Source of the DNA: Naegleria gruberi | Taxonomy: Eukaryota | Strand: one strand, 5' to 3' | DNA: 64,000 bases | Assembly: GCA_000004985.1 (NCBI GenBank) | Contig: GG738873.1 | Shown here: in pieces, positions 4,086-57,986 of the stretch | Layout: every line of letters begins with the position of its first letter | Numbering within the stretch: the stretch's first letter is position 1 | Program-made: the position numbers and the translations under genes | The notes under the pieces: generated by a model | What the model was told of the DNA's origin: nothing | The model's input: only the letters and a program-made list of their open reading frames with translations | Databases searched by the model: none

Positions 4086-4745
4086 TTACATTGTATATTT
4101 TGTTTCAAATTCCTTCCTTTCCATTCGCCTTCTCAAATTCCTCTTCATTCTTTCCCTTAATTGTTTTTGTTTCCTTCTTATTCTCTCTGGAGTTATCAGT
4201 CGTTGAATTTTCACACCTTTCACATCGGATTTCTTACAAATTTTGACATTTCTCTTAATGACAAACTTTCTGACATCGTCCTCTTTTGAGAGATTGAATA
4301 ATTTCCGTATTTTTGAAGCTCGTTTAGGTCCAAGAGTTTTGTGTTTTGGATCATCAGTGAGGCCAACAATTACATGAGCTGGAGATTTGATTAATTTCAA
4401 AGAAACAGCAGAAACTGAACGATCCAGGAAACATCCCATTAAGGTTTTTCTTCTCCTTTCTCCATCTCTTTTTCTCCAACATTTCTGAAATCCAAATTCG
4501 CCTGCCCTTAACAACGGACTAATTTTTCCAATTTTCAATATTGTAGGATGACACTGTTTACCATTGTTATTGATAGCAGCTGTGATTTTAAATTTACAAT
4601 TTGCCAAATCAGGAATATTCAATATATCACCAGAAATGCATTCTCCAATTCTTTTTCCAAGAAATGGAAATGATTGATAGTACAAATCTGAAGTTTCGTA
4701 TACTTTTGTTTGACTAGTGAGTGGATTTGATACTTGAAGCTTCAC
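4086..4745 (-). CDS. rps6: 40S ribosomal protein S6 (eS6)
   Basis: The 219-aa ORF aligns along its whole length to eukaryotic S6 (KLQVS..., GKRIGECISGD, GFQKCWRKRDGERRRK, LGPKRASKIRKLFNLSKEDDVRKFV). Its first codon is GTG, not ATG; see findings. Confidence 0.85.
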   Translation of the reverse strand: MKLQVSNPLTSQTKVYETSDLYYQSFPFLGKRIGECISGDILNIPDLANCKFKITAAINNNGKQCHPTILKIGKISPLLRAGEFGFQKCWRKRDGERRRKTLMGCFLDRSVSAVSLKLIKSPAHVIVGLTDDPKHKTLGPKRASKIRKLFNLSKEDDVRKFVIKRNVKICKKSDVKGVKIQRLITPERIRRKQKQLRERMKRNLRRRMERKEFETKYTM

Positions 4746-4789
4746 AGAATTGCATTCTATTCATCTCGGAATCAATTTTGAAAACTTAC

Positions 4790-14859: not shown

Positions 14860-16987
14860 TTACCACCAATCAGCAGTGAAAGAACGAGATTCTGGATGAC
14901 CAAATGGACAACCTGTTCCATCTCCATTTCCATCACCTTCATCATCACATTCTCCAAAAACTCCCATATCATCATCGTCTTCACTCTTCAATCCACTGTA
15001 TTTTCTATTTTCCTCTGGTGTAATGGCATGATAATTGGCATTTTGAGGAGATTTGAATGAACGTAACCAAAATGCACGATCGAAACTCTTCAATAACATG
15101 TAATCCTCCTCGTACTTTTCTTGGAAATCTGGAATCTTTGAGAGAATTGTACAAACTAGAATATCCAATTGTTTGTGAGTGTAGAATGTAATCTTCTTTT
15201 CCTTAATTCCAACCAATTCTCTAATATCATCAGGAACTCTCCATCTAATATTACACAAACCCTTAGTTCTCAATTTTTCCACATAGTGTTGCATGGATCC
15301 TGAAAAGTTCATCTTGATACCAAGAGCTTTACAAATATCATCAACGAAATGTTGACAATTGGATGAGTGTTGAGAATAGGCACGATGCACATTCCATTCG
15401 GAAATGACCTGACTAACCTTTTCAATAGCAACATCCAAATTCTTTGTGGAAATTTCCTGTATATCAATGGCAAGTGTTGCTGCATTACTATAACAACGAC
15501 GAGGAATACACAATGAACTACTATTCCACTCAATCAACCATGGTCTAATATTAAATTATATTGGAAATTAAAAAATTATTGGAAATTACTATTAAATAAG
15601 AACATACCCTAAAATTACACCAGAGTGGAATAAACCAAATTGAGGAGACATGGAAACTGAACTCATAATTGGAGAGAGTAATCTTCTCATAGTTCTCTCC
15701 TTCTTATTTTTGGCAATTTCAGCAATTACCAACTTGACCTTGATGGTATCTCTGAAACGAGTGGCAAGTTTCTTACTCAATTCCTCAGCTTCTTCAATGT
15801 CGGAAGGAAGTTTATCAAGAGAGGCTGAATCAGTCATACCAATCAATGATTTGGATTCTGATTTGGAATTTAAAGAAAATCCCTTAGATCCATGTTGTGA
15901 AATATTTCTCATTGAACTAAATAATTTCTTGATAGCATTAAATTCCTTGTTGAGATAGGCCTTTTTAAGACCTTCAATAGTACACAAATTCTCTGCATAT
16001 TCCTTCAAGTCGTCATCGCTCATATTTTGAACCTTCTTTGATGATTGTCTGATTTTACCAATGATAACTCCCAATTGTTCTTGATGAGTTAGCAATGGAA
16101 AAGAACTATCGGATGATTGACCTGATTGTGAAATAATATCAGAAACAGTTGTTGAACTTCTATCAATTGGATCAACATATCTATATCCATTACCATAAAT
16201 ATCTTGTGAAATTTTTGTAAGAGTTTCAAAAAGCTCAGCACGTAAACCATCTGAATAAACAGGTCTCAATTTATCAAAAACATAATCTCCATAATCGGAT
16301 GGTTTTGTAATATTAATGAAAATTTGACCATCAATTTTGTGTGAAAGGAATGTTTCTTCATGTTCCTTTGACCAAGCTCCAATTCCCAAATTTTCATCTT
16401 TCAATTTTACAATACGAGAATCGTTTCTAATAAGTGAGACAACTTCGTGAGCTGTTAATGTTCTGACATCACGATTTCTAATCATACCAGAATCAATAAC
16501 AGTTGCTTTACTCACAAAACTACTTGATTTACCACTCAATTTATCATTTTTCTGTCTTTCACTTTCAAAATTAACACTTTCCATATTAAATACTAAACAG
16601 TAGTAGAATTAGAAAATAAATTATTAGAAAGTACAATTAAAACTCACCAAATGCGTTATCTTTTAAATGATTAATAGCAGAGTATAATTTTCTCAAGTGA
16701 CCAAAAGCAAATACAAAATTCGAAACCCAATTTTTCAAATCTTGTTCGGACGAAATTCCACCAATTTTATTCTTCAACAGAGATCCATCAGTTATTCCAC
16801 ATTCTACAAAATCAATATAGTATTCTGATAATCCGTTTAATGATAACCATGTTTGAATGTCCTTTTTGTTCCAATCTTGAACGCGATCTTTATATTTCGT
16901 TTAAAATATTCGAAATAATGTGATGATGTTGGTAAATATTTTGTTATTATTACTTGTTGAATACATACCAGATTTGAGTGGTTTCAT
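14860..16987 (-). CDS. SAM-domain protein; minus-strand exons 16987..16969, 16887..16648, 16592..15608, 15544..14860
   Basis: ORFs 15592..16584 and 14860..15537 join across a 63-nt GTATGT..TAG intron (15545..15607). Two upstream exons (19 nt MKPLKSG; 240 nt) read in frame through GTATGT/GTGAGT introns. The 240-nt exon encodes a SAM-like fold: DRVQDWNKKDIQTWLSLNGLSEYYIDFVECGITDGSLLKNKIGGISSEQDLKNW. Confidence 0.7.
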
Positions 16988-20326: not shown

Positions 20327-22007
20327 TTATTCTCGTGGTATTTTAATACGTTCTGTAACTCTTCCAAACAGATTTACAAATGAAAGTTCCATAATATTCG
20401 AAGATAATCTTATATAGATAAATCCAGATTCTTGTTGGAATTTCTTCAAGTATGGATGGTGGTTTGAAACATCAAAGCGAACAGCTGATCCAGCTCCAGA
20501 AATGAAATGGTTAAGAGTGTCGTATGGTTTCAAGTATTGAATACTGTGGTCATGTCCTGAAAAATAATATCTAATATCATTCTTCCTAAGGAATGGAAGT
20601 AAATGTTCAATGAGATTTTCATTGTCTCCGTGTGTGGATGCTGAATAGAATGGATGATGTCCAATTGCAATCTTCCACAATGGAATATCACTTTTCTTAT
20701 CATCGGTGGCAAATTCATTCACATTCTTTCTCAAAATATTTGTTCTCGATCTTTCAGAGTTGATGAAATATGAAATGGCATCCTCTTCTCCACTCTCAAT
20801 GTTCTCGTCTAATTGTTTCATAACAGTTTCCATGTACTTTTTTTGAGCTCGAATATCTCTGGTTTTGTGGAGGGCTTCCTTATTCATTTTAGGATGAGTA
20901 TAATACTTGTGAATGAATGGATTAGTATCGAAAAACAAAAATTGAACTCTAAAATCAAAATTTCCAACTAGATTTCCAATAGTGTCAGTTCCATCTTTGG
21001 AAAGAAGTTGAATTCTCTTCTCTGGGAAGTACATTGTCTCTGAAAAATACTCTGATGCAATATATAAACGTTTGGATGAAGAAGGGTGATTGGTATATTC
21101 GATTTGAGCTGCTGGATTGGATCTATAATCTAAATTATTTAATAATATTAATCCAATTATTATAAAAATTATTGAAATTCCACATACCATGATTTCCCAA
21201 AACAGATAAGAATGGAATTTTTTGCAAACTTTCATGTTTGTACACATTTTCAAAACTCTCCTTAAACAAAGGATCATCTACAGATTTTACACCCTCTATT
21301 ATTATTATTAATATTGAAATAATTAAATTTCCACTCCAAACAGTAAACTTACCTTGATAGAAATTATCTCCAGTTGAAATAGCAAAATCACATCCAAAAT
21401 TTTGACAATAATATCCCATCTGCTCTGCAACATGTGACTGATTGAATGCTCCCTTTCTTCCCCAATCCCCAAATACTATAAACTTTAAAAACTTTTCATC
21501 AGATTTTGAAGAATACTTCAAATGCCAATCATTCTTATCATTACTCGAAACAACAGAATAAATTCCAATCTTGAATTGATCCATCTCTTCATCAGTCAAT
21601 ACAAAAAACACAACACTCATCAAAATAATGGTCGACAATATTATCAACAAGGAACAAATCAAACACATGGAAAAATAGGGCGAATTTCTAATAATTCCAA
21701 ATTGTGAAAGTTTTTGATGTTTCTGTTGCCACATTGACAAGAATCCAGAATCTTTCTTACTATCCGAATATGAAGAATAGGATGATGGTAATGTTGATGA
21801 AAATTGGAAAGTAGATGTTACAGTACTCGGATCAGATGAATATTCCCCACCACCACTATTACCCTGTCCACTATTCGATGCTCGGAACATTCCACCACCA
21901 ACACTATCGACACCTACTCCTCCTCCAGCACCTCCAGCACCAGCACCTCGAAATGATAATAAATTATTGCTCGAGAAGGTTTTTCTATTGTTGAGGAGGT
22001 GAGCCAT
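20327..22007 (-). CDS. acp5: purple acid phosphatase (tartrate-resistant acid phosphatase type 5-like), membrane-anchored; minus-strand exons 22007..21188 and 21129..20327
   Basis: It has the metallophosphatase motifs GDWG, GDNFY, GNH|D (split by a 58-nt GTATGT..TTTAG intron at 21130..21187), GHHP and GHDH. There is an N-terminal Gly-rich region and a TM segment. Confidence 0.85.
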
Positions 22008-28342: not shown

Positions 28343-29422
28343 ATGCCACCAAGAAAGAAATCAGCCAAAAAGAAGGAAGAGGAAGAGAGTGACGAAGAAA
28401 TACTAGAAGAACCAACCGAATTTAATATTACAATAGATGATGATGTTAAACCTTTCACAAACGAATATGATGAATTAGTTAGATTTGATTCTCTCGAAAA
28501 GCTTCCTTCCGAAGTTGTATTTGAAATATTTAGCTTTTTACCTTCTATTCCATACTATTTTAAATTGCAATTGTTGAGTAAATTCTACAAGGAAAAGTTT
28601 CAAGAAATTATTACCCAAACAAAACATTTAGATCTTGCACCACTCAATCTTCAACATCATGCAATTTGGCCTAAAGTATGTCAAATGATCAAAGATTGTG
28701 GATCTTCATTAAAGAGTATTCAATTTGGAGAATTAAATTACAAATGGAATGAAATCAAGGAAGCAATTCTAAAGAAATGTTCCAAATTGGAAGAACTTGC
28801 ATTAGTAACTCCTACCATGTACTTTACTTCATTATTCAGAAAGGATGGCTCTTACTATGGATATTATGGTGGCCCTACTGTTGACTACTCTGAAGATAAA
28901 AAAAACAGAGATGTATGGTGTGATACTCTTACCACACTCAATGTGATTGGTTTAGAAAAGCCAAGAAAAGGCAGACGAAATCATAGTTACCTTCTCACAA
29001 GTGCCACTTTCAAATATATTCTTGAAAAATTCCCAAAGCTCAAAAATATTAATTTCATTCTTACTAATTATACAGAAATGCAAATTCAATCTCTTTATGA
29101 TGCAGTTGTAAGAAATAGAAAGAGATTACTTGAGTGGAGAGAAAAGGGTGGTAGTACTGATGGCCTTTATGAACGAACTGGAATTTGGTATGAAGAAGCT
29201 ATTGGAATTGTAGATTTTGATATTCCACACGATTTGAAAATCAATGTACAAGGAAGTATTGGAAAATTATCATCAATCGATGCTGCTAAAAATATTGTAG
29301 AAGTTTACAATATCAATCCAAATACCAAGTTTGAATTCTTATTCCAGAAGAATTCAAATGGTACATTACTAGATCAAATTATTGGTAGCCGTGCTGCTTA
29401 CAAACAAAAACATCAAGGTTAG
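28343..29422 (+). CDS. F-box / LRR-like protein; probably continues via a 38-nt intron into the ankyrin ORF
   Basis: An F-box is present at LEKLPSEVVFEIFSFLPSIP. The ORF ends ...CAAG|GTTAGT, a good donor at 29418. Confidence 0.7.
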   Translation: MPPRKKSAKKKEEEESDEEILEEPTEFNITIDDDVKPFTNEYDELVRFDSLEKLPSEVVFEIFSFLPSIPYYFKLQLLSKFYKEKFQEIITQTKHLDLAPLNLQHHAIWPKVCQMIKDCGSSLKSIQFGELNYKWNEIKEAILKKCSKLEELALVTPTMYFTSLFRKDGSYYGYYGGPTVDYSEDKKNRDVWCDTLTTLNVIGLEKPRKGRRNHSYLLTSATFKYILEKFPKLKNINFILTNYTEMQIQSLYDAVVRNRKRLLEWREKGGSTDGLYERTGIWYEEAIGIVDFDIPHDLKINVQGSIGKLSSIDAAKNIVEVYNINPNTKFEFLFQKNSNGTLLDQIIGSRAAYKQKHQG

Positions 29423-29455
29423 TTGACATTTTCCCATTTTTATAACATTCCAAAG

Positions 29456-30708: not shown

Positions 30709-33357
30709 ATGAGAGAACCAACAGTATCGTATCTCCTTCCCTATCCCAACAACAAGATCAAAGCACATCGATTCGGAATCAACAAATTAATTTATTGTGG
30801 AGAGAATCAAACAGATAATGATCATCATGAATATTTGCTGTCTGGAGGAAGAGATGGTACTATTAAATGTTGGTCTTTAAATAATGTAGGAAAACAAACA
30901 TCCATACAATCATCACCTTTATCATCATCGAGTCCATCATCATCTGATCATCATCATAAATATGTATTTAGTTTGGAAGAGCATGTAGATTGGGTAACCG
31001 ATATGATTTTACTTGCAGATAGACATCATTTAATTAGTTGCAGTCAGGATAATACTCTAATGTTGTGGGACGTTGATATAAATGATCCGAAGCATTGCTT
31101 AACATACAGGTTAGTATAATTTGGAGAGTGGATGAAAAATAATAATTATTTGATTAGAACACATACTGATTATGTTACTTGTTTGGCTGCTCCAACAAAT
31201 CATTCAGGACAAATGACCTGTTCAACATTTTGTTCAGGAGGTCTAGATTGCTCTGTATTTGTTTGGGATGCTGAAAGGTTATGCTCAATAAGATCATATT
31301 TTGAATCAATTAGTAATAATATAGTTAGTAATCAACAAGTCAATAATCAAGAATTTGGCCAAAAACCTTTCCAACAATATGATATTCAGAGCTTGCAAAA
31401 TTATTATCCTCCTCATCTTAACCCTCAACCAAAGCATAGCGTCTATGCCCTTGATATATCAACATGTGGAAATAATGGTACATTAATAGAACAGCACATG
31501 TTGGTAGCGGCTGGATCTACTGACCAACTTGTTAGATTGTACGATTTGAGAACTTCATCAAAGGTTGGTAAACTAAGAGGCCACAAGGATAATATTAGAT
31601 GCCTTAAATTAACAACAGATGGAAAAAATTGCATTACTGGATCAACAGATGGTACAGTTAAATATTGGGATTTAAGAAACCAGAGATGTTTACAAACATT
31701 CTCTTTCAATTCCTCAAAAACCTCTACTAACGCATCAATTTGGACCCTAGAGTTTGATCCATTCGACACAGATCAAGCCTCTTTTACAATTGGAACCAGA
31801 GATGGTTTTGTATATTATCTTGATGCAAAGAATAAGAAGATGTGTACTGTTGCAGATTTAAATTCAATGACATCTCAATCATTTAACAAGCATTCAGTTC
31901 TTTGCACTAGTATTGCTCCAAAAGGTGGAAAATTATCGAGCACAATTTGGGTTGGATCTACTGATTCAAATATTTATGAGTTCGAGTATGGTAAATTAGT
32001 GGATGGATTATCTGCATCTAAGGATCCTTACAGTGAAAACAATGCTGTACTGACTCCAAAATCTGCCTCCAACTCTTTTAATGCTATGGATATGTCGCCA
32101 GTATTTTCTAATCTTGTAGATTATTCTCCACTAACTCCAAAAACTCCAAGCAGAGCAAGAGCTAGCTCATTCCAAGTGCAGAGAAAGCCATCAGGAACAT
32201 TGCATTGTCATCCAAAGTCAAAAATTCTTGGATGTCCTGGTATTATTGCACACTTTATATTGAATTGTAGAAAGAGAGTGTTAGTGAAGGATAACTCTGG
32301 AAGAGTTACTCTTTGGGATATTACCACAGGTAACATGATCAAAGATTATACAGAACTCAATAATACAATGACAGATGACGGAGAGGATTTATTTGAAACC
32401 TTATGCAACGATTTTTCTAAAGAAATGATTTCTGTGAGGAATTGGTTCACTGTTGAGAAAAAGTTGGGATGTCTAGAAATTGTACTCAATCCAAATGAAT
32501 GCTTTAATGCAGAAAATTATGCCTTCGAGTCTGGTTTCAAAGATGCTATTGAGGAAGAAAAGGTCAACTATGGAGTAATGACCATTCAGGCTCTGTTTAG
32601 AAATTGGAAAGAATGTAGAAATGAAGTTTTATTGCAACAAATGTCAGAAGAGGAACGTAAAGAAAGAGAAGAAAGGCTCAGTACTGAGCAAAGAGAAGAC
32701 CTCCCTCAATTACTACCAGAGCGTACATTTAATTTACCTGAAAATACTTCTGTAATCGTTCACTTTGAAAAGAATGATAGTGAGAAGAGCCCTTTCAAAA
32801 AGCAACTAAGACACTTTGATGGCAATGAGACCGAAATTACTCACATTCCTCAGTGGGTTGTTGATATTTTAAGAGGTATTCCTCCTAATGTAAACCCTCA
32901 GTCACACAAACTTTCATTCTACTTGGAGCCGGCTCATGATGAAAAGTATCTTGGACCACTTCTTCAAAATCATGCCAAGTTGGTTGCTCATAGAATTTTG
33001 AGAATTTACAAAGTTGCCTCTCACATTGCAACAAAATTGAATCTTGAGCTACCTACTGTTAAAGAACTGGAGGAATCAAAGAAGTTATATTATGAACTGA
33101 AAGCAAAGGAGCACGAAGAAAATCCTCAAATTCCCCTTATAACTCAACAGGATGACGAGAACTTTGATGAGTCCCTCAAGTTGAGTGCAGAACGTGATCC
33201 AAATTCGCAATGTCGCCCAGAAGAATTTATTGAGATTATTTGTTATGGAAATAGAATGAAAAATACTTGGAATTTAGCTATTGCCAATGCGTTTTATCGT
33301 CCAAATAATGTATCTTGGATAACCCTCAACTATAGACAACGATACAGAACCAAGTAA
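30709..33357 (+). CDS. wdr48: WD40 repeat protein 48 (UAF1/Bun107-like); exons 30709..31109 and 31158..33357
   Basis: A 48-nt GTTAGT..TTGATTAG intron (31110..31157) joins the two ORFs. Segments EHVDWVTDMILL...LISCSQDNTLMLWDV, RTHTDYVTCLA, PQWVVDILRG and YLEPAHDEKYLG align to WDR48. Confidence 0.85.
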
Positions 33358-34976: not shown

Positions 34977-37228
34977 TTATTTGCATGAAGAGTTCTTACA
35001 TTGTTGTTTGAAGAAAACAGTTCCCTTCTCAATCAATGAAGAAACATATTCATCACTGGTTGGATACATTTTTGGCTTAATGAGAGATGAGACTTTGACT
35101 TGATGTCGAGGTTTTCCATAGAGATCAGCCAATGCTTCACTCGGTAATAAATACCATCTCAAGTGGCCGTACTTGGATTTGAAGCCATAGGTTTCTTCAT
35201 CTCCAAATAGTTTTGTAATTTCTTCCTCAAAATCCAAAGTAAAGTTATTATTCTTGACTAGCTCAACTGACTGATCGAGTAATTGTTGAGCATTTTGTAA
35301 AATATCGGCATAATTGTGTAATTTCTTTGGTTCTGAGGTAAATAATTGATTGAACTTTTCAACAAATTCCAATTGACCATTTTGGAAAGTCACATCTGTC
35401 AACTTCTTTCTGTGTTGTGTTAAAAACTTGGTGAAATTGGCATGAATTGGTGCTGAATTGGAATCGAAATTTCTGTGCATCCATTCGTTTGTCTTTTCAT
35501 TGAAAATATAATAAGGCAAAAACTTCCAACCATGCGTGGCCACAAAATCCATCGCATTAAGTATAAAGTCCACCATCTTGTCATCGAAAAAGTAATTGAA
35601 ATTCAATCGTATCCATCCAGGTTTCAAATGAACTAGTGAAATAGGACTCTTATACGATTCCAATAAGGCTCCCTCCAATTCGTGAACTTCCTCTTGTGAA
35701 ATACCGAGAATTTCCTCTCCATACGGACCTGCACAAGCACAGCCACTTCTCGTCTGAATTCCAAACAAATCATTCATGAGTAAACTAATGAAAGAGTGGT
35801 GCAAATAATAATCACCATGTTTGACTAGAAAGGAAAAGAAGGCCAATCTATCAACTCCTCCCATTGATGCTTTCTTGACCTGGTCCTAGAATGTGTAAAT
35901 TTGGATTCCTACTCAAGAAATCAAAAGCCCTCTGTCTGTAATTCTCCTCAATTTTTGTAATCAATTCAGCTCCAACATCTTGTTTCAATTTGAATGCCAA
36001 GGCACATCGAATTGAGCCAATAATATCTGGAGTGCCTCCTTCCTCACGTTCCTCAATGATATTGGTATAACTATGATTGTTGGCATCAACAAAATAGACA
36101 GTTCCACCAGCTGGTCTATTTGGAGTCTCTGGAAATACAATTTCAGTCAACTACTAGAGGAAAATTTCAATACTACTTACTATTTTGGAATAGTTTCTTC
36201 TTGGCAACTAAAACACCAGGTGTTCCAGGGCCTCCAATAAACTTGTGTGGTGAAATAAAGATGGCATCTTTCTGATACATTGGATCATTTCTTGGATTCA
36301 TGTCAATTGGAACGTATGGAGCTGCTCCAGCATAATCAAAAAAGCACAATGCTCCAAATTCATGACTTAACTTTGAAATTCGATCACAATCTGTCAAAAC
36401 TCCGGTAACATTTGAACCAGCACTGAATGAACATATCAAAACTCGTTTTCCATTCTTGTACTTTTTCAAACATTCTTCCAAATATTCAAAATTCACATTT
36501 CCAAACTTGTCTTCAATAATTTGCACCACAATGGCTCCAACTTCTCTCCACGGCAAAATATTACTATGATGTTCATACGGTGATATAAACACAACAGGAA
36601 TCTCTTCATGACCACTAGCATTCTGAACTAGTTCTCTAATACCAATACAATGTACCAATGTTGAAATAGCCGAAGTACTTCCACTTCCTTGAAATAAGAC
36701 AACATCCGAATCTTCACCACCACTCAATCTTGCATTCACACATTCAGCAATAATTCTCCTAGCATCCTCTCTGAAATGAGTTGTCTGAAATCCACTAAAC
36801 GATGAAGTAGTATGTGTATTTGCATAGGTAGGTAAAACTTCCTCAAACAAATAATCTTCAATGAATTTGAGTGGTTTTCCAGAGGCAATATAATCACAAT
36901 AGGTTAGTGGAAGAAATCTATTTTCCTCAAATGGAGTTCTAAAGACTGCTTCACTTCCAATGATATTTTCATGAATATTCTTGATGAGGGAAACCTTGCT
37001 TTTCACAGTTTGCTTTCTGACACTTTCCTTTTCAAATTGTAAAGTTTCGTCTATTATCTTTTCTAATAACTTGTATTCGATAGAGTGTTCATCAAATGGT
37101 CGACTACTTCTTTGAGCCATCGTTCTCTTTGGACGAGTTAGTACAAGTGTCTTTTTGAACTTTTCAATTTCTTCGTCTGCATTCACCTTACGTGAGGATG
37201 ATGTAATTGTAATTTGTTTGTTTCCCAT
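34977..37228 (-). CDS. class V aminotransferase / cysteine desulfurase-like PLP enzyme; minus-strand exons 37228..36181, 36128..35880, 35854..34977 (last junction uncertain)
   Basis: A PLP-lysine context SPHKFIGGPGTPG is present. A 52-nt GTAAGT..TTTCCAG intron (36129..36180) restores ...LFQN|K|TPNRPAGG. RSGCACAGPY resembles the SufS R.GHHCA.P site. ORFs 35851..36150 and 34977..35864 are offset by one frame; see findings. Confidence 0.75.
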
Positions 37229-37977: not shown

Positions 37978-40900
37978 TCATCTTCTCCTTCTTCTTAATT
38001 GGTCAAAAACTGAATTATTCAAAATATCCTGTGCTTGAGGTCTGATGGCACTGTCCTTTTCCAACATTGATAAAGTCAAGTCAATGATATATTGAGAATA
38101 TTGACCAGGCTCTTCCATTTTCTTCTTTAATAATTGTGAAACTTCCTTTTGATCCTTAGTGACATAGAGTTGACTAATTGATGTAAAAGTGTCCTTAGTT
38201 ATTATTTGATAAATAGTTACACCTAAACTGTAAATATCAGTGTTATAGAAATACTTGCCACCATATCCCAATTCTTTAAAAAACAATTTAAAATTAATGT
38301 CAGTTATCTCTTAATTACTTACCAGGTGACATGAATAGAGGAGTGCCAGCATATGAATTATTGGTAGAACCTTGATTTGCTTTGGCCAATCCAAAATCTG
38401 CAATAACTATTTCAATATTATCCTTATCTAAACTCTTTACAAAAATATTGGATGGTTTGATATCTCTGTGGATGAGTTTCATTGAGCTGTGAATATAATC
38501 AAGAGCGCTACACATTTGGAAAATGATTTGCAATAATATCTGTTCTGAACATGTAGAATCATCTTTGGTCAATTGAACCAAATCTCCCAATTCATAAAAG
38601 TCCATATCAATACACAACAATTGATCCTTACTAATAAAAAAGTCATTAACCTTAAGAATATTTGAATGGTGAATATTCATCAATTGAGTTCCTTCCTTCA
38701 TAAAATTATTCAACTCCTCTGTTGATGTGTATTTGATTACTTTGATTGCCTTCATGGTGTTTGTTTTGGAATCAAAAGCTTTGAATACTGAACCAAAGGC
38801 ACCTTGACCAATTTTAACCAAGTCCATATATCTTGAGAGTGGATTGAAGGATTGACTGCTACCTCCAGTAGATGAGATACTAGTGAGAGGAGTCAAAAAC
38901 ATACTGGCATCTGATGGGAAATCACTTGATTGACCAAGCTCAATATTTTGAATAGTTTGAAGTTCGTACGCTTTTTGAGATTTTAATTTCCAAACACAAA
39001 CTGAAAATACCACTACAATAATAGCTATGATAATTATTGCAATCAACACAACTGGAATTGTAACACCAAGGATGATACCAAGAGTTTGATCATCAATGGA
39101 TCTGGGAATTGAGTTAGAAACATTAGGTGCATAATAATAAGCAAGTTCTTGAACTGTGAATAGAGATAAGTGATTAGTGACACATTCCAAATTGAAATAG
39201 AGTTTACCTTCCTCTCTTTTGACAATTGTCATTGATTGAGTCAAAATACCAGAATTAGACCAAGTTTGTTTCACTGAATCATAGTAACTGCATGAAATGT
39301 TAGTATCTGTCTTGTCATTTGTAAACAAATTATTGAACTTGATTGAAATTGGTTTTGTAAGGCCACTGACAGGTACTTGAGCTCCACTTTCTTGACTATA
39401 AATGGATAATTCAAAAATTGGTCTATTTTCAAGAATGTTATTTAGTGTGGTATCCTTCTTGATCAATGAAGAGCTGTAGAATAATTTGACATTGTTTGGA
39501 ATACTTAATTGAGAAGTAAAATCGGATGGGAAACTGGCCGAAACTTGAATAGTATCTTCAATCATTATAGAAATTTCCTTTCCATTCAATTGAGTTTCCA
39601 AATCCAGACTTTCAAGTGAATAAGTCCCCAATGTATTATTCGTAGTCAACCCACTCAACAATAAATATTTAACTTGATATCCTACAATGAGTGATTGTTT
39701 CTCTAATTTTGAGGAAAATCTCTTAATCAAAATAGATTGTAAATTTGATAGCTCAGTATAGTGAGTTTCGTCCAATAGAGTTAATCTTAATGCAGAAGTA
39801 TAGTACTGCTTGGATTTGTCCATTCCTGAATAAGTCCAATCAAGCCACTTTACAAGATTATCAGTCATGGAATTGATGGAATTTTCATCTTGTAAAGTGA
39901 GATCGAGAATTGAGAAAATATCACAAATTATTGGAAGGACCATTTGAATAAGTTTTTCATCGACTTTGGATGTCAAACTCTGTACATTATTTAGGAGTGA
40001 TAGCATTTCATTCAAATTGGAGTTTAGAGTTTGAATTTGAGAATTGGAAGTTTCGGTAAACAATCTTCCAGTGAAATTTTCAAAATTAGTTTCGTTTAAA
40101 AGGAGAATTGACATGAGGGAATTAATGGAATTGACAGTTTCAATCTTCAATGGTTCTACTCTTTTTAAAGTATAAAATTGATCATTTACATAATTCAGTT
40201 TAGACGAAATTGAGTTTGTAATCGAATTTGGAGCTTTCATTGTAATTGTTCTTGTAAGCGTTCCAATAGATCCATATCTATTGACAAGTTTTACAACGAG
40301 ATTTAAATCTGAACCATCTCTACTGAGTGGAAGTCTGGTTACAAGGTTTTTCTTTAGAGTGTTGGAAAGAATTGATATTCTTTCTCCTTGTTGAGAATGA
40401 ATTTCCATTACATAATTCGAAACTGGTTCTGAAGGTAAATTGAGACAAGAAATGGTCATGAAGCTTTCGAATGCATAATTAACAGCTTCGTTTCTTAAAT
40501 TGTAATAGGAACATGAAAATCTTGGAGTATTGTCAATTCTTGTGGAAAGTGAAATATTCGATTGACCAAACTCATTCCAAGTTGACAACTCAAATGAATA
40601 AAATTCACCATCAATCAAATATTCATTTCCAATATTCAACTCTGATGTAACAGAATTACCACCAACATTTCTAATGGTTTCTCTATTTCTCAAGAATTCG
40701 TCCACATTCTCACCCACTGCAACATTCAATCTTCCTTCCACCAATTTCCAACTTGTTGTAACACTAGAAGTAGAAGAAATAAGAGTCTTTAAAACCAATG
40801 GACGATGACTAGCATGAATAGGAGGTCTATAAGGGCTACTAAGTTTTGGAGCTTGAATGGATGAATCAGTCAACTTGATAAAACCAATGAAATTGTAAGG

Positions 40901-46417: not shown

Positions 46418-47867
46418 TTAGACCTTTCCATTTTGACTAACTGGAACAACATCGAACGACAATTCATTTTCCAAGAGAATTCCCTTAATAACAGTTGATG
46501 GTCCAAGATTTTGGGTGGCATTAGAGAGGACAATAGTACCATTGGCAAACCATGATGACATATAACCAGTGTAAGAACCTTGAATTCTTTCCAAGAGAGC
46601 ACCAGGATAAGCTGGGGTAGCAACACTCTTACGGAGTTGTTCAATGATTGGAGTGAAAATAATTGGGGCATTCTTGAGAGCAATATTGTTAGCAACTGGA
46701 GAGTTCAATGAAGCCAAAGTGATCATTACAAAATCAAGTTCTGGAACAACCAATGGTTTGGCATTGTAGCCGTAAACAGAACCTCCCTTGGTCAAGTAGA
46801 ACAAGTTATTTTTGTCATCATACATGGTTTCAAAAGCACCCAAACCAATGGTGAATGTAGCATCGTTAGCCAAGAAGGTTGGCATGATGAATTGTCTCAT
46901 GGCATCCTTTGAAATTGGAACAGGGCACGCAGTGGCATTGTTAAGAGAGCTATAGGTGAAACAAGAGAAGAATTTTAACATATCATTAGCAGTACTGTAC
47001 ATGCCACTCTTGGGCCAACAACATGGTCAAATAATCTGGATCTCTACCAACAACCATCTTGGAAAGAATATCAGAAGAGTAATCAAATCCAGTGTTAGTC
47101 ATGCCCAACTTGTCGAAAATGTTAGTCTTACAGAATTCTCTGAATGATTTACCTGTAATCAATTCAAGAACTCCACCCAAAATGGTAAAGTCAACATTAC
47201 TGTAATAACGATCACTTATGGATGGAGCCATAAATTGCAACAAGTCAACTGTGGTCTTTCTGTATTCATCAAAAGTCATACTGCAATTATATGGATCACA
47301 AGGAGAAGTTCTAGACAAACCAGCACCGTGACTCATTAATTGTCTGAAAGTAATCTTGTTAGTTGCTGTCGTAAAGTACTTGTTAGTATATTGAAAGTCT
47401 TTAACATAGTTAGTGATTGGTTCATCAATACTCTTAATAAGACCCAATTCTTGAGCAATCAAAGCAGCCATACTGGTAAAAACTTTAGTGACAGAGGCAA
47501 CTCTAAAGATGGAATCGGCAGTTGGAGTTTCAGTTTCCTTACCCTTAGTACCAACTTGACCAACACCTTGGTTCATAACAACAGTATCTCTATATTTGGC
47601 AAGAATAATTCCGGATCCATTCTTTACACCATTGTCAACCAAAATAGATTTAACCATATTATTCTTGAGTTCTGTTAAAGCAGATTGAAGAGTTGAAACA
47701 TCAATTTCTGCAGATCTTGGAAGAATGTTACATTTAGGGTTTGCATCAGATGCCTTCAATACTCTGACTTGAGACTTGAGAGATCTAGCACTTGCCTTTG
47801 GATTGACATCAGAACTTATCTTAGTGTAAGCAACGAACCAATCAAGACCTGGCATCCAGAAGTACAA
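46418..47867 (-). CDS. beta-lactamase/transpeptidase-like serine hydrolase with C-terminal lipocalin-like domain; minus-strand exons 47867..47052 and 47008..46418 (43-nt intron proposed)
   Basis: It has SxxK (FRVASVTKVF), YSN, HGAG and GMYSTANDM motifs. Overlapping ORFs 46986..47867 and 46418..47002 differ by one frame. A GTTGGT..CCCAAG intron at 47009..47051 would give ...ILSKMV|SGMYSTANDMLKF. Confidence 0.7.
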
Positions 47868-49012
47868 GTTGCCACATTTGAGAATCTAAGAACTTCATTT
47901 CCGTAACCTCCCTTAAACAATGTCAAAGAATCGATATATGCAGCTTCTTGAATATCTCTAATAATGAAAGCATTATTTGGTTGGTAATCCAAATCAAAAT
48001 TAACATAATTTCCACCCAAATTAATGTTCATAATAGTTTGACCATCTTGATAATACAAAGTGGCATTGGTTCCATCAGCATTACACAAATAGGTACCTTG
48101 GTACTTGGCTTGATCTTGAGCTGGAGGTAAAACAAATGCTGGCATGACAGAAACATATTGACTCATAAGTGTTCCAACAGCCTTAGCATAAATTTGTTCA
48201 GCAATATATGTAGCAAAGACATCTCTATTGGAAGAAATTGAAATGATTGCAAACTTGTATTCTGGAACAAAGATCATGTGAGTAGAAAATCCGAGAACGC
48301 TTCCTCTCTTAGATCTCTTCCATACGTTATACTTGCTATCGTGACTCATTTCAAAGGCAAAACCAGTTGCATTTTGAGCGTCTGGAGAAATATATTGAGG
48401 AGTGAAAAATTCACGAACAGTTTGACGAGTAAGAATACTTTCATCATTCAAGATTGAGGAGGCATAATAGGTCAAATCTTGCAATGTAGAGTAAGCATCC
48501 ATGGAACCTTCACACCAACCAGACTTTAATTCAGAATCGAATGTGATAGTGGCATTGCCAGCATAGCTAGGAGCAACATGAGTGGAAACAGTGAGGAGAT
48601 CAGAGACGAGACCAGAGTTGGACATGGAGGCACTTTTCATTACATCCTTAAGATTAGAAGAGACGGATTGACCATTAATTTTAGCAAGAGCTTGACTCAA
48701 CCAACAATAACCAAAGTCAGAATAAACTGGTACAGAGTATGGTTCATGTACAACTGAAGAATGTCCAGGAAGACCAGAAGCAGCCATTGCCTTAACAACT
48801 TCATCATTAGAAAGATTACAATCAAATAGTTTGCAAGGAGCTTGTCTTCCGAGACCACTCATGTGTGTGGACAATTGTCTCAAAGTAACAGAGGAAATTG
48901 GAAACTTGGAGAATGTACTAGTGAGAGCATCATCGAGTTTCAACTTTCCAGCATCTCTCATTCTGAACATTTGAGTAGCAACCAACAATAACGAAAATTT
49001 CGTAAAAAGCAA
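47816..49012 (-). CDS. beta-lactamase-like paralogue lacking the N-terminal ~100 aa and the catalytic Ser (LFTK in place of SVTK); pseudogene or non-catalytic paralogue
   Basis: It aligns to the neighbouring gene from the helix after SxxK through the lipocalin-like C-terminus. The frame opens only at 49030 after a TAG. There is no room for an upstream exon before the next ORF at 49037. Confidence 0.5.
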   Translation of the reverse strand: MLFTKFSLLLVATQMFRMRDAGKLKLDDALTSTFSKFPISSVTLRQLSTHMSGLGRQAPCKLFDCNLSNDEVVKAMAASGLPGHSSVVHEPYSVPVYSDFGYCWLSQALAKINGQSVSSNLKDVMKSASMSNSGLVSDLLTVSTHVAPSYAGNATITFDSELKSGWCEGSMDAYSTLQDLTYYASSILNDESILTRQTVREFFTPQYISPDAQNATGFAFEMSHDSKYNVWKRSKRGSVLGFSTHMIFVPEYKFAIISISSNRDVFATYIAEQIYAKAVGTLMSQYVSVMPAFVLPPAQDQAKYQGTYLCNADGTNATLYYQDGQTIMNINLGGNYVNFDLDYQPNNAFIIRDIQEAAYIDSLTLFKGGYGNEVLRFSNVATCTSGCQVLIGSLLTLR

Positions 49013-49036: not shown

Positions 49037-51271
49037 CTATTTTTTTTTATTTGCCAAAATTTCTTTCAATTTTTTGAATACTGATTCTCTCTCCTTTCCT
49101 TCATCTGTAAACGAAAAACCATACAACAACACATTTGAAGGTGGAATACGTGTATTTCTATTTTGAACTCCAAAATCCTCAAATTCTTTTGACTCATCAT
49201 TCCATTGGAGCACAGAGAGATGAATTCTCTCATCATAATACAATAAATATTTTCCAACCTCATAATAATCTTGGCTCATTTGAGTTTTAAATGCAACCAG
49301 TGTTTCCAATTGTAAATGTTTTAGAAATTGTTTTTTCTTATCAGGAACAAAGTAATCATGAGATGAAATTTGAATTCTACTTCTTCTAGTGGTTTCTTCA
49401 TTAATGGTGACAGAGTTATTCGAAATTGAATTTTCTGTCAACCAAAAATCCAAATTGGTTTCATTGGAAAATAAAGACTTTGTTTTTTCTATAAAATAAT
49501 CTTCATACCATTTCCAAGTTGCATCTGCAAGCATTGATTTGATTTTGTTTAATCCTTTTAATAAATCTAATTCGAAAGCTGGTGGTGTGATAATGTCAGG
49601 AACATTGTTAGGTACAACATTATTTCTAAATATTTCAATAACTCCATCCTTTCCATTCAATCCTACCCATTTAGAATTATCATAATTAAATTCACGAACT
49701 TGCAAAACAGGTTTGTCATTTTCCATTTTAATTTTAAATCCATGAAAATCAGAAATTCCTTTAAATGTATTGACATTATCTTTAAATAAGGATTTAAAAT
49801 CAAACATTCTTTCTAAAAATGATATTTCAGGAACATTTTTAGAATAAATTTCTTTCTTTTTTTCAATAAATTCAAGAGGACTATGACATGAATTATTTTG
49901 AAAATAAATTGAATGAATTGAAAAAAATTGATCTATATCAGTATGAGTATGTCCAACAATCATGGTGCCAATAATTACTTTTTTTACCCACCCCAAACTA
50001 ACTAATAAACCTGCGAATGCTACAGCGTACTTGTTTTTGAGTTCTTTTGAGCAATTGTCTGCTTGTAAATACAGAATTGATGGTAAATTTCCTTTTTCTT
50101 TTTTTAAATTATATAAATATTCATACAGAACTGTTAGTGCCAAATTGGCTCCACCTTCACAATTAGGAAGTTTTAATTTAATCTGATATTTTCTTCCATG
50201 TGAAATTAGTCCATAATTTGATATGTTTAATTTTTTAACAGCATTACTATTTTTAGTAGCATTGGCAATTACTGGATATGGTGTTGCTTGTGCACCATCA
50301 ATTATTATAGATAAATACTTGTTTGGATTAGCTATTGCTTTTTCTATTTTTTTTTTAAAAACAAATCTTTCTCCACAACATTCATTAATATGTTTGGCTC
50401 TTGCTTTTTTTGCTTTTTCTTGCTCAACTTCATTTGTTGATCTCTTTAAATTATTTAATCTAGCACACTCATCACATTTTCCTAATCTAGTATTTTTTGG
50501 TAATTTAATATTGGGAAATAAGTTTTTTGCTTGTCTTTTAAAAGTATCCAACCTATAGTAAGCACCTTCTTGTGATGAGACATATATTTCATATATTGGT
50601 TTCCAAGTATTGAAACCAGTAATGTGCATTTCATTTGCATTAGGTAATGGTTCAGCAAAGTTTTCTGCGAATACTGAAAACCAAGATTTAAAATTTGTGA
50701 GCTTTTCACTATCTTCCTTAATTGGTGAATGTTGTTCGTCAATTTTAGATAAATCAGTCTTTTTGGATTTTTTCAATTTATATGAAGAAATACCATAAAT
50801 ATTTTTGAACATTATTTCACAAACAGGTTTTCCGTTAATTGTATAGTTGTTTGAGTGTTGTGTAATATTTCCAACAAATTTCAACTTGTCTTTTTCCTTC
50901 AATCCTGCATAGAATGTTCTTTTTTCAGTTATTTCCGAAATTGTAAAATTAGTATTGCAATGCTTAACGCAACAATTTTTCAAGATACATGAGGAAATCG
51001 CATTATCATTCAATAATTGTTTTGATTTTTTTCCTAATTTTTCCTCTGGTGATCTTAATCTTCGTTTTGTTGATTTGTATGTACGTTTTGGTTTTGTATT
51101 AATATTGGCAATCTCTGATGAATTAGTATTATTATTAATATTTTTATCACGATTTAATTTTAAATAAAGATTAATTGGTGATTCATCCTCTAATTCCGAG
51201 TTATTAAAATCTTGATAATTATTATCATCATTGTCCTGTTGAAAGTATGAAAGTAATTCACTTGCAGACAT
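49037..51271 (-). CDS. 744-aa ORF with DDE-transposase-like motifs and Cys-rich N-terminus; candidate transposase or domesticated derivative
   Basis: Motifs include SIIIDGAQATP (cf. the Harbinger/PIF first D), ~78 aa, YLQADNCSKE (cf. the DNA second-D motif), ~39 aa, then the acidic cluster GHTHTDIDQ. The N-terminus has CILKNCCVKHC...CDECARL. The ATG sits in an A-rich context and the ORF is intact. Confidence 0.45.
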   Translation of the reverse strand: MSASELLSYFQQDNDDNNYQDFNNSELEDESPINLYLKLNRDKNINNNTNSSEIANINTKPKRTYKSTKRRLRSPEEKLGKKSKQLLNDNAISSCILKNCCVKHCNTNFTISEITEKRTFYAGLKEKDKLKFVGNITQHSNNYTINGKPVCEIMFKNIYGISSYKLKKSKKTDLSKIDEQHSPIKEDSEKLTNFKSWFSVFAENFAEPLPNANEMHITGFNTWKPIYEIYVSSQEGAYYRLDTFKRQAKNLFPNIKLPKNTRLGKCDECARLNNLKRSTNEVEQEKAKKARAKHINECCGERFVFKKKIEKAIANPNKYLSIIIDGAQATPYPVIANATKNSNAVKKLNISNYGLISHGRKYQIKLKLPNCEGGANLALTVLYEYLYNLKKEKGNLPSILYLQADNCSKELKNKYAVAFAGLLVSLGWVKKVIIGTMIVGHTHTDIDQFFSIHSIYFQNNSCHSPLEFIEKKKEIYSKNVPEISFLERMFDFKSLFKDNVNTFKGISDFHGFKIKMENDKPVLQVREFNYDNSKWVGLNGKDGVIEIFRNNVVPNNVPDIITPPAFELDLLKGLNKIKSMLADATWKWYEDYFIEKTKSLFSNETNLDFWLTENSISNNSVTINEETTRRSRIQISSHDYFVPDKKKQFLKHLQLETLVAFKTQMSQDYYEVGKYLLYYDERIHLSVLQWNDESKEFEDFGVQNRNTRIPPSNVLLYGFSFTDEGKERESVFKKLKEILANKKK

Positions 51272-51510: not shown

Positions 51511-53501
51511 ATGTCTTCAAGTGAATCATCACAATCAACAAGTAACGAAATACAAGAAAATGTTGTTGGTGATAATATTTCATCATCAAAATCCAACAAT
51601 AATTTACCATCGTCCACTAGTACTTCTGAATCAACAATTGATGTTCATGAATCGACACCCGATTCATCTAAAATTCCGGAGCAAACAACTAACAAGCAAA
51701 ATTCAGAAGATGAGAACTCCTTTGAAACCTATTACAAATTAGGGGACCCTGTAAATATTAAGGGAAAACCAACTGATCTCTTTAAAAGCATTACTATCAA
51801 GAATACTGGAAACCAACTAATCAGTGAATCTGTTGTACGATTTAAAAAATCCAACATTTCATCATTATTTTACATTTTAGGAATTAAAAAATTAAAAAAG
51901 TCATTTAAGGTGTGTGGAATTTTAGAAACGGATTTCAGTAAAACCACTGATCTTGATCACGAGTGGTTGGAATTGGTTGACGAGAATGATAAGAGTGTAA
52001 AAACATTTAAAACAAGAATTATTAAATTAAATGAACAACCAACCAAAAAAAATTCCAAAAGCAATTCTGTTGATACCTCCTCCAAGAATGAAGGTAGAAA
52101 ATATGAAACAAGATCATCTAAAAAGAAAAAAACAGAAGAAGAAGAACATGTACTTGAACAAGAACAACAATCTAATTCCGAATCTGAAGAAGAAGAACCA
52201 CCTCCAAGAGTAGCCAGAAAAAAATCAACTAGAAAATCAAGTAAAAAATCTGAATCAGAAGAAGAAGAAAAAGAGGTTTCTCCAAGAGTAGCCAAAAAAA
52301 AACAACAACAAGAAAATCAACAGGTAAAGTAGGAAGGCCAAAAAAGTCCGAGACTGTTTCAGTGGATGATGATGACATTTTATTTTCAGATATTTTGTCC
52401 AATAATTCTAAACCTAATTTAAATTCAAATACTATTAGTAACAGCTCAGTCAAATCAGTCACCAAACCAACCAAATTAAAAAATAATTCCAATAATTATG
52501 ATGATAATTCAAATAATAATTTAAATAATACTTTAATCAAATATGATGAAAATTTAAATACAAATCCAAATACTAATAATAGAAATATTTTCAGTAACAA
52601 CAAATTTAATAATAATAATAACAATAATTTAAATTATAATAATACTAATAATATCAAAAATTATGGTAATAATAATTATAATAATTATGATAATGTTATT
52701 GACTTAAATAACTCACATAATTCAAATAATTTTATTTTTAATTCAAATACTAATACGGAACAAAATTGTTACAACAGAAACAATTTCAATTCAATTAATA
52801 ATAATTTTAACAATAATTACAATCCCAATAATTATGAAAATGTATCAATTTACAATTCAAACAATAGAAATAATTTTTTGAATTATAATAATAATTTTGA
52901 CAATCATCATTTAAGCAATGATAATTCTAATAATTATTCAAATAATTTCAGTGCAAATAAATACAATAATATGAATAGTCATAATAATTATAATAATTGG
53001 AATACCAATGACAATATTTCAAATAATTATTTAAATAATAATAGAAATAATTTATGGAACAATTTCAATTCTAATAACAACTATCATCCAAATGCTAATA
53101 ACAATTTTACTAATTATCCAAATAATAATACTAACAATTTTAATAATTATCCAAATAATAACAATTTTAATAATTATGCAAATAATAATAATTTAAATAA
53201 TTATGCAAATAATAATTATAATAATTGTAACAACAATACAAACAATGGTCCTATTAACCTCCATAACAACACGATGATGAGTGTGTTGCATCATGTCAAT
53301 AATATGATCGACAATGAAATGGATTTCGAATTAAAAATGATGATTAACAAATTAATGGATAAATTAAACCAAACAGAGGAAAAAAACACTTTATTGAAAT
53401 TAATTGGTTCAACCAGGAATTTACATTATAGAACCCCAGGTAATTCCGAGAAAAACTCAAAATTGAAAGAATTACTATTCAAACTTCTTAATGATGAATA
53501 A
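51511..53501 (+). CDS. low-complexity nuclear-type protein: Ser/Lys/Glu-rich N-half plus Asn-rich (prion-like) C-half; two ORFs joined near 52294..52362
   Basis: ORF 52362.. starts at GTG and has no in-frame ATG, while its frame is open back to 52254. An internal repeat (PPRVARKKSTRKSSKKSE versus SPRVAKKK/TTTRKSTGKVGRPKKSE) indicates that the second frame is coding from the A9 run at 52294-52302. Confidence 0.7.
52440..53270 (+). repeat. Asn-codon (AAT/AAC) rich low-complexity coding tract (N/Y/F-rich prion-like domain)
   Basis: The tract runs from NNSNNYDDNSNNNLNN through to NYANNNYNNCNNNTNN. Confidence 0.7.
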
Positions 53502-53805
53502 TTAATTTTTTTAATAAAAAATTTCGTAAAAATGTGATTTTTTGCCTGACGATTTTTACCAAATTTTTGTTCAATTTGGTCAAATCACCAATACGAACCT
53601 TAGTGGTTGCATCACCATTTCCAGAGAACAAACTTGATATGTTTCCACCTGGAAACATAATACTACTAGCAGCAAAACCCGATGACACTGTAAAGGCAGC
53701 ATCTTGGATAGCTTGAGCATCGCTTGGAGAAAACTTTGCTTCTAAGAAGGTAGAGCAGAAAAGCAAGCAGCTTAGAAAAATTACTACAATTGTTTGTTTG
53801 AGCAT
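53488..53805 (-). CDS. small secreted protein (105 aa) with N-terminal signal peptide
   Basis: An ATG follows an A7 run. The N-terminus MLKQTIVVIFLSCLLFCSTFLEA looks like a signal peptide. The 3' end overlaps the neighbouring gene's last codons, so the true C-terminus may be spliced. Confidence 0.4.
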   Translation of the reverse strand: MLKQTIVVIFLSCLLFCSTFLEAKFSPSDAQAIQDAAFTVSSGFAASSIMFPGGNISSLFSGNGDATTKVRIGDLTKLNKNLVKIVRQKITFLRNFLLKKLIIHH

Positions 53806-56499: not shown

Positions 56500-57986
56500 A
56501 TGACTAAAGACATAATAATGGAATGGGAACTAGAACGTCTCTTTGAAAAAGCAGATTCTGGAATTTTTAATTTTATTGATGATCCCCACAAGGAAATGGA
56601 GCCTTTCGTTAATCAGACGAATAGAGATGGAGTAACATTATTGTACTTGGCATGTGCAAACGGAAGGGAAGATGTTGTAAAATACTTGTTGGATGTAAAG
56701 GGATTGGATGTCAATTTTAAAGTGAGTTTTGAAATTCGAATATAATTTAATTATAATCAAAAATAGGAAGTGAGTTTTTGATTCCGTGATGATAATTAAT
56801 TTGTGAATTTTAGGGAGTATGTTTTTTTATTCATAGGATGGGGAATTAATTATGGACTAGCTTGTATGTATTAATCACCATATTCAATTATTATTAATAA
56901 TTGAATAGGCAGCAGTATGTATTTTGTGGATTATATTTGGAATTTACTATTGAACTAGAAAAGGGTATGGTTGTTTTGAGAGTTTCATTTTAGTAACCAC
57001 AATAGACTTCTGAACGTAAGCTTTATACAGTAAGTTTGGACTTAATTCAATTTGCTGAATATTTGAAAGCTTGTATGTTATTTATGAAAAATTAATAGAT
57101 TTAACATGTTTAGGAGAGTGTAAGTTTAGGATAACTCATTATATTCAACAATATTTAAAGGCTGTAAGTTTTTGAATTGGTTGGGCATTAAACAGAGAAG
57201 ACACCTCTATACGTTTCATGTGAGATTGGGAGAATTGATATTGTGAATCTGCTTCTTAGTCACCCTGGTATAGATATTGATTATGGTTACAGATTCGATA
57301 GCAGATATACTCGTGGTCATGCAATTGACAGATCACCTCTTTTTATTTCTAGTGAAAAGGGACATGTGGAAATTGTAAAACAATTACTTTGCTCTAATGC
57401 AAATCCCTTCGAAGGTGAAACTCGAGACAACTACACCCTGTCATGTTTAGGTGTTTCCATAATTAATAATCAGTGGGAACTAGCTTCAATAATTTTAGAT
57501 CACATGAAGTTAATGGATTGTCATACCGACGGATGGAATAATCTCATTTCTGACATTCTATTGACATGTGGGAAAAGAAATTTATCATTTTTGAAACAGT
57601 TATTGGAATCTAACATTTTTTGCATTGATGATAGTGTAAGTGATTAAACAAATTAATGCTCATTATCTTAGCTTCCCTTACATTATAGCATTTTAAAGGA
57701 GGACAGTATTATGGCAAGCTTACTTGTAAAGTATGGAGCTAATAGAGAGTTGGATGCTCACTCTGAGTCTCTTAATGTTTATCTTGTTTGTGCCATGAGA
57801 AATTTTGATGGATTGGAAGAATTTCAAATCCTTGATTCGATTTATGAAACACCAACAGAACTTGCTGAAAGGTTAAATGTTGACCTATTTTTTTCGATTA
57901 AGGAAGAAAGTGCTATGAAGAGAAAACTACTGACCTCATTGCCTAATCTTAGCTATTGTGATGTTATTGTGAGATTAAGAGAATAA
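56500..57986 (+). CDS. ankyrin-repeat protein (possible SOCS-box-like C-terminus); exons 56500..56721, 57198..57635, 57672..57986
   Basis: Three ORFs carrying ANK motifs (GVTLLYLACANGREDVVKYLLDVKG; KTPLYVSCEIGRIDIVNLLLSHPG; SPLFISSEKGHVEIVKQLL; LPLHYSILKEDSIMASLLVKYGAN) join in phase via a GTGAGT donor at 56722, AG acceptors at 57195/57197, and a 36-nt GTAAGT..CTTAG intron at 57636..57671. Confidence 0.7.

Follow-up and report, generated by a model that had tools for sequence, protein, structure and literature searches.

Programmed -1 ribosomal frameshifting, known for example from the viral gag-pol and the bacterial dnaX genes, combines a slippery heptamer with a stimulatory RNA structure, a pseudoknot or hairpin, 5-9 nt downstream. 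Gene models that have been split at homopolymer indels have a plainer signature: adjacent ORFs on the same strand lie in different frames and overlap where a mononucleotide run lies, no start codon is present in the second ORF, and the annotation holds the first piece only. A split of this type, caused by a one-base indel at a homopolymer, is an ordinary kind of finding. Runs of A can also be decoded in unusual ways. Bacterial RNA polymerases tend to slip on runs of nine A's (PMC1088944), described cases of A-run slippage include the A9 run of Thermus dnaX, IS elements and the GAAAAAA motif of potyviruses (PMC1088944, PMC4552492), and ribosomes slide on A runs (PMC4363877).

The locus described here, from Naegleria gruberi, shows all of the features listed for split gene models and differs from them in no way of kind; what is special about it is an internal DNA repeat that narrows the frame change to 17 nt. 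The locus lies in a 64,000-nt stretch of nuclear DNA, part of contig GG738873.1 (GenBank assembly GCA_000004985.1), referred to below as the window. In 2-kb blocks, the GC content of the window ranges from 25 to 40% and is mostly near the 33% published for N. gruberi (PMC8296547).

The annotated protein in this region is XP_002676208.1 (‘predicted protein [Naegleria gruberi]’; other identifiers EFC43464.1, NAEGRDRAFT_68595 and UniProt D2VI82), which is 100% identical to the 273-aa product of ORF 51511..52332 on the + strand and is recorded on a 461,873-bp scaffold. On one side, the gene diverges from an intact, transposase-like ORF of 744 aa on the - strand (49037..51271), assigned by Pfam to DUF7869 (PF25273, E=4e-43). 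In its coding sequence, this neighbor has an A10 run that lies in frame (50347..50356, T10 on the + strand), and its terminal A9 run encodes KKK. On the other side, a small - strand ORF of 105 aa with a signal-peptide-like N-terminus (MLKQTIVVIFLSCLLFCSTFLEA…) lies at 53488..53805 and converges on the gene studied here, overlapping its last 14 nt.

ORF 51511..52332 ends with the residues ...SPRVAKKKQQQENQQVK, followed by the stop codon TAG at 52330..52332. Shortly before this stop it crosses an A9 homopolymer at 52294..52302 (+ strand, context AGCC-AAAAAAAAA-CAAC), where the sequence in frame 1 reads GTA GCC AAA AAA AAA CAA CAA CAA GAA AAT CAA CAG GTA AAG TAG. From M1 to K264 (51511..52302, + strand), codon usage scores +73 when read in frame 1 and -207 and -75 when read in the other two, and we take this interval as the first part of the gene. 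The next ORF, 52362..53501, starts 30 nt past the stop with no intergenic space. Its frame (frame 2) is open upstream as far as 52254 and includes the reading ...QKKTTTRKSTGKVGRPKKSETVSVDDDD...; from 52302 onward it reads TTTRKSTGKVGRPKKSETVSVDDDD…; the putative second part of the gene, 52302..53501 (+ strand), thus comprises 399 codons plus TAA at 53499..53501, and is present in no protein collection that we searched. A preliminary description of this DNA had placed the A9 run at 52294..52302 and had described the second ORF as lacking an ATG but open back to 52254; both statements are confirmed here.

Several statistics were used to ask whether frame 2 is coding. Between 52362 and 53498 it has no stops in 379 codons, with 23 and 110 stops in the other two + strand frames, and its full open length is 416 codons in DNA of 25% GC. 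Codon-usage log-odds, trained on the 19 long ORFs of the window, total +116 over 52362..53498 in frame 2 versus -178 and -438 in the other + strand frames. Of the six frames, this one alone is open throughout the region, and among the ORFs listed for the remaining five the longest is 87 aa. The Asn-richness does not extend to the last 89 codons, though they too are open and have a positive codon score in frame 2 only. On the strength of its stop counts and codon usage, frame 2 (52362..53498) is predicted with high confidence to code for protein.

These results bear directly on whether the annotation could be correct as it stands, with the gene stopping at TAG 52330 and the downstream frame of 379-416 codons being something separate: a non-coding AAT-rich repeat, a dead remnant or a gene starting from an ATG near 52971. 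The model in the databases coincides exactly with the 273-aa ORF, no protein corresponding to ORF 52362..53501 is found in any searched collection, and simple sequence of the AAT type can by itself keep several frames open. Here, however, a single frame is open while the other two on the strand are interrupted as described, and that frame stays open, and alone scores positive, through the final stretch where Asn is no longer abundant. A start near 52971, the first in-frame ATG (~204 codons past the GTG at 52362), would moreover leave ~240 open codons ahead of it, in a region where the two ORFs have no intergenic gap. We therefore find it decidedly unlikely that the annotation is complete. Because frame 2 lacks its own start codon and the 30-nt gap offers no room for a promoter, ORF 51511..52332 is its sole plausible upstream partner. 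The two open frames overlap by 78 nt before the frame-1 stop, an overlap of a size that chance alone would give. Read-through of the TAG was considered separately and excluded, since frame 1 then meets a TAA soon afterwards and does not enter the Asn-rich frame.

The position of the frame change can be examined with the aid of a repeat within the gene itself. Repeat copy 1 (52166..52240, + strand; …SESEEEEPPPRVARKKSTRKS…) is read in frame 1 throughout, while repeat copy 2 (52244..52320, + strand; …SESEEEEKEVSPRVAKKK / TTTRKS…) changes its register relative to copy 1 from +78 before the A run to +80 after it. At the DNA level, 52166-52224 matches 52244-52302 over 59 nt with 76% identity and a spacing of 78 nt (26 codons), and this match ends exactly with the A run; 52218-52240 then matches 52298-52320 over 23 nt with 87% identity and a spacing of 80 nt. 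The change in spacing from 78 to 80 across the run means that the register jumps by +2, which is equivalent to -1. In a gapped local alignment of the two copies, the sole frame-changing gap, of 2 nt, falls at the A run.

The whole local DNA alignment has a score of 57, compared with 17.8 +/- 3.1 for shuffled sequences, and none of 2000 shuffles scored as high. The part that follows the run was also evaluated by itself: its 14 identities in 16 positions were equalled by 20 of 2000 dinucleotide shuffles, and the corresponding peptide match (STRKSS--KKSES with TTRKSTGKVGRPKKSET) by 97 of 5000 shuffles. Owing to the low complexity and the purine richness of the region, the significance of the repeat match beyond the run is thus moderate (p about 0.01-0.02) and not overwhelming. 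After the run, the peptide match score to copy 1 is 28 in frame 2, versus 13 in frame 1 and 17 in frame 3; similarity in frame 1 ends at the run, whereas the module is carried on in frame 2 (PRVARKK-STRKSS------KKSES aligned with PRVAKKKTTTRKSTGKVGRPKKSET). The codon scores change over at the same place, from +6.3 in frame 1 versus +0.2 before the run to +4.6 in frame 2 versus -5.7 over 52303..52361.

Taken together, the repeat register and the codon scores place a net change of -1 (or +2) within 52294..52310 on the + strand (AAAAAAAAACAACAACA), an interval bounded on the left by GCC (the end of PRVA in frame 1) and on the right by AGA AAA TCA (RKS in frame 2). Internal evidence thus supports a frame change that coincides with the A9 run or adjoins it. 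The preliminary description had joined ORF 51511..52332 and the next frame into a single gene and had pointed out that the second frame reproduces an upstream module; the repeat register, the reversal in codon scores and the stop counts all agree with the first statement, and the identities of 76% and 87% bear out the second, the post-run portion with the moderate significance given above. The same description had proposed a -1 shift at A9. A net -1 at or next to the run is what we find as well, but the missing base is not necessarily an A, as an A9 run followed by T fits equally well. The lost base could be an A (from A10) or a T after A9, or an A7 run may have gained two bases, and the repeat would fit all of these; at the site of the possible lost T, copy 1 reads …AAAAAAATCAAC…. 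An intact allele would then read KKKTTTRKS if it has A10 (…AKKKTTTRKS…), or KKKSTTRKS if it has A9+T (…AKKKSTTRKS…).

An alternative way of bringing the two frames together is a spliceosomal intron between ORF 51511..52332 and frame 2. Four GT..AG candidates on the + strand would connect the two frames with no intervening stop: two mini-introns with the donor CAG/GTAAAG (52324..52346, 23 nt, and 52324..52352, 29 nt) and two longer candidates with the donor CAA/GTAAAA (52241..52362, 122 nt, and 52241..52389, 149 nt), the last of which has a strong acceptor, TTTTATTTTCAG. For comparison with genuine introns of this region, we surveyed all junctions in the window at which same-strand open frames, each 70 codons or longer, could be joined by GT..AG, with no filter on the donor. 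Nine introns were inferred, four on the + strand (3015..3050, 29418..29455, 31110..31157 and 57636..57671) and five on the - strand (38322..38274, 36180..36129, 21187..21130, 15607..15545 and 4789..4740). Three of the nine are verified by Pfam domains that continue unbroken across the splice (protein kinase, class-V aminotransferase and metallophosphoesterase). The sample is small and partly chosen by donor pattern, but within it the introns are 36-63 nt long and 32-51% T, their donors are near-invariant (GTAAGT, GTATGT or GTTAGT) and their acceptors are loose (TAG, CAG or AAG). AAG and CAG acceptors are thus both in use, and AAG, the type that the mini-intron candidates have, occurs in three of the nine.

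The four candidates resemble these short introns in being GT..AG and frame-restoring, and differ from them in donor consensus, in composition and, for the 23- and 29-nt pair, in length. A GT[AT][AT]GT donor occurs in nine of nine inferred introns of the window and is absent near the break, where the donors, listed without a donor filter, are GTAAAG, GTAAAA, GTAGAA, GTAGCC, GTACTT, GTTTCT and GTAGGA. The two mini-introns are shorter than the shortest intron of the window (36 nt), and all four candidates (23, 29, 122 and 149 nt) are 67-83% purine with 9-19% T; none fits the local range of both length and T content. The repeat gives further arguments against splicing. With the mini-introns, repeat copy 2 would lose GRPKK(SE), and the stretch homologous to RKS, which lies upstream of the donor, would be read in frame 1 as QQQENQQ, while the 122- and 149-nt candidates would delete repeat copy 2 as a whole. 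With either class, the frame-2 continuation of the repeat module is lost, and codon scores already favor frame 2 from 52303. For these reasons, we judge an intron to be unlikely. The preliminary description had called the 23- and 29-nt introns the less parsimonious solution, with which donor, length, composition and repeat concur, but its list of candidates did not extend to the 122- and 149-nt introns.

The introns inferred here are also of interest for the gene models of the organism in general. Introns in the gene models of N. gruberi have a mean length of 203 bp (PMC8296547), compared with 36-63 nt in this window, and part of the long annotated introns may accordingly be modeling artefacts.

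A further possibility is that A9 is genuine on all alleles and that the 663-aa protein is made nevertheless, either through RNA polymerase slippage that gives a fraction of the transcripts one more A or through -1 frameshifting or sliding of the ribosome at A_AAA_AAA. In frame 1, A_AAA_AAA (52296..52302) is formally a slippery heptamer of the X_XXY_YYZ type, the -1 frame runs on for 399 codons, and a -1 slip on this heptamer would yield exactly the product that had been proposed in the preliminary description. The nine A's are on the sense strand, in a run as long as the threshold of about nine or more given for slippage in bacteria (PMC1088944), and one added A would restore the frame. The long intact frame downstream would also point to continued translation.

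Other observations speak against recoding of either type. Programmed -1 frameshifting shares with this locus the zero-frame A_AAA_AAA and the long -1 extension; the locus differs in having no downstream structure and no hint of a need for two products. We folded the 63 and 98 nt that follow the run and found no stimulatory RNA structure, with minimum free energies of -3.6 and -11 kcal/mol (z-scores +1.34 and +1.42); 187 of 200 shuffles for the 63-nt segment, and 191 of 200 for the 98-nt segment, were at least as stable. The site thus lacks the second element by which classical -1 frameshifting is defined. Sliding of the ribosome, in an insert series of A9, A10, A11 and A13, was reported to be robust at A11 (PMC4363877). 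The known A9 cases of transcriptional slippage involve bacterial or viral polymerases, whereas here the A10 run of the neighboring DUF7869 gene stays in frame and is read straight through; long A runs are thus tolerated in coding sequence in this region. Adventitious slippage may occur at a low level on a real A9, but it would give a minor fraction of the product only, and our searches found no relatives that would show whether the break is conserved. Production of the 663-aa protein from A9 by either kind of slip is, in our assessment, very unlikely.

We consider it probable that the two frames are pieces of one gene of ~663 aa, broken by an indel in the DNA record, with sequence error and genuine allele counted together. 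That both halves would be translated as one protein, and that an indel is what separates them, we infer from the nucleotide sequence. The gene would combine ORF 51511..52332 with the open frame 52254..53501 (663 codons in all), and a net deficit of one base, or equivalently an excess of two, in 52294..52310 would break the frame at or just after A9. The break would then be neither spliced out nor a programmed decoding signal; it would be either a homopolymer consensus error or a recent genuine frameshift mutation or allele in a heterozygous diploid.

We regard these two origins as about equally likely. Low-complexity DNA is prone to indels, and a frame that has stayed intact for 416 codons in such DNA suggests that the break is not real or is very recent, which counts in favor of an error. 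Homopolymer errors are uncommon in Sanger drafts. If the reference N. gruberi assembly is one, as we take it to be, then a consensus error at the run is not especially likely, which counts in favor of a real allele. Naegleria has been described as mainly a heterozygous diploid (PMC9928731), which makes an allele-specific indel plausible. Also counted for a real allele is a second frame break, 5.3 kb away in a tandem duplicate of the beta-lactamase family, which involves neither a homopolymer nor a canonical intron. A genuine frameshift mutation or allele, an origin that the preliminary description did not mention, is at least as likely a cause as slippage.

The gene with this second break is the latter of two tandem beta-lactamase-family (PF00144) genes and occupies 46418..47885 on the - strand, with the break between ~47061 and 47017. 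Homology to its upstream paralogue runs in one frame to ‘…SDILS’ and resumes 43 nt further on, in another frame, at ‘WPKSGMYSTANDM…’. The site has no homopolymer and no GT[AT][AT]GT donor, and offers only weak introns of 43 or 46 nt (GTTGGT or GTTGTT … CCCAAG). The gene could be a pseudogene or could contain a sequence error or an odd intron. Two other candidates in this region were rejected: a 51-nt intron at 47000..46950 (- strand), which is coding sequence with the motif SGMYSTANDMLKF, and a frame break at 47818/47885, which is the boundary between the two tandem genes.

Returning to the gene broken by the probable indel, its ~663-aa product would have, in order, a Ser-rich N-terminus, a small and probably globular region, a Lys/Ser/Glu-rich linker, an Asn-rich tract and a helical C-terminal region. 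The putative globular region (51700..52040, + strand; ~aa 64-176) contains the motif ‘ITIKNTGNQLISESVV’ and belongs to no family in Pfam; AlphaFold, run with no alignment, gave an unusable model of it (pLDDT 37). Its ‘ITIKNTGN…’ motif weakly resembles a repeat domain in a bacterial repeat protein (P0002) with 27% identity, but since the match was made up of 14 repeated weak stretches at that level of identity, we judged that it is not homology. The linker would carry two PRVA(R/K)KK...KKSE modules together with a GRPKK motif (GGA AGG CCA AAA AAG, 52332..52346, + strand, frame 2), whose likeness to an AT-hook core in a basic linker is that of the motif alone. Compared with the core R-G-R-P, the frame-2 sequence KVGRPKKS has the GRP and the basic flanks and has V in place of the first R, with no Pfam match at E<=10.

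In the frame-2 translation, an Asn-rich low-complexity region of ~250 codons (52482..53235, + strand) is followed by a non-repetitive C-terminal region (53236..53498, + strand), for which AlphaFold, again with no alignment, predicted four helices (pLDDT 55) with a weak likeness to a leucine zipper. A phmmer search of the PDB with the C-terminal region matched 1dip, a TSC22-family DIP zipper, at E=0.064 and 17 bits, which is below significance and is given as a lead only. In this match, the C-terminal 50 residues (within 53184..53498) align with the TSC-box and zipper of DIP/TSC22 (‘…EKNTLLKLI’ with ‘…RENTLLKTL’). The TSC22/DIP family is, to our knowledge, specific to metazoans, and the C-terminal region gave neither a Pfam match nor a fold match that would place it there; the best Foldseek hit in the PDB, at E=2.7, is meaningless.

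Homologues were sought in several further collections. Pfam searches with both ORFs and with sub-regions gave no family. A word-indexed search of 5.8 billion proteins, with the merged product minus its Asn tract as the query, returned only the annotated 273-aa protein, and the same search with the N-terminal region by itself returned no match. An exhaustive HMMER search of 1.84 billion representatives returned only the annotated protein and the bacterial repeat protein mentioned above. Scans of metagenome contigs by protein pattern and by exact DNA gave no match to either half, and look-ups of the exact product found no record in other assemblies or transcript contigs. The protein is thus an orphan, with no detectable homologue of either half in the collections searched. 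If composition is a guide, the basic/acidic linker, AT-hook-like motif, poly-Asn tract and possible zipper would be in keeping with a protein that binds DNA in the nucleus.

The chief value of the analysis is for annotation: NAEGRDRAFT_68595 (273 aa) is probably truncated, and ~390 further codons, with the AT-hook-like motif, the poly-Asn tract and the helical C-terminal region, are unannotated. The example also illustrates that an internal DNA repeat can place a frameshift where no homologue exists. Its wider interest would depend on whether the A9 run is genuine and the full-length protein is still made. With A9 on every allele and a full-length product, the locus would represent ‘savior’ slippage sustaining a frameshifted gene; we know of no earlier case of recoding in a heterolobosean nuclear gene, and recoding at this A9 run, if true, would be the first.
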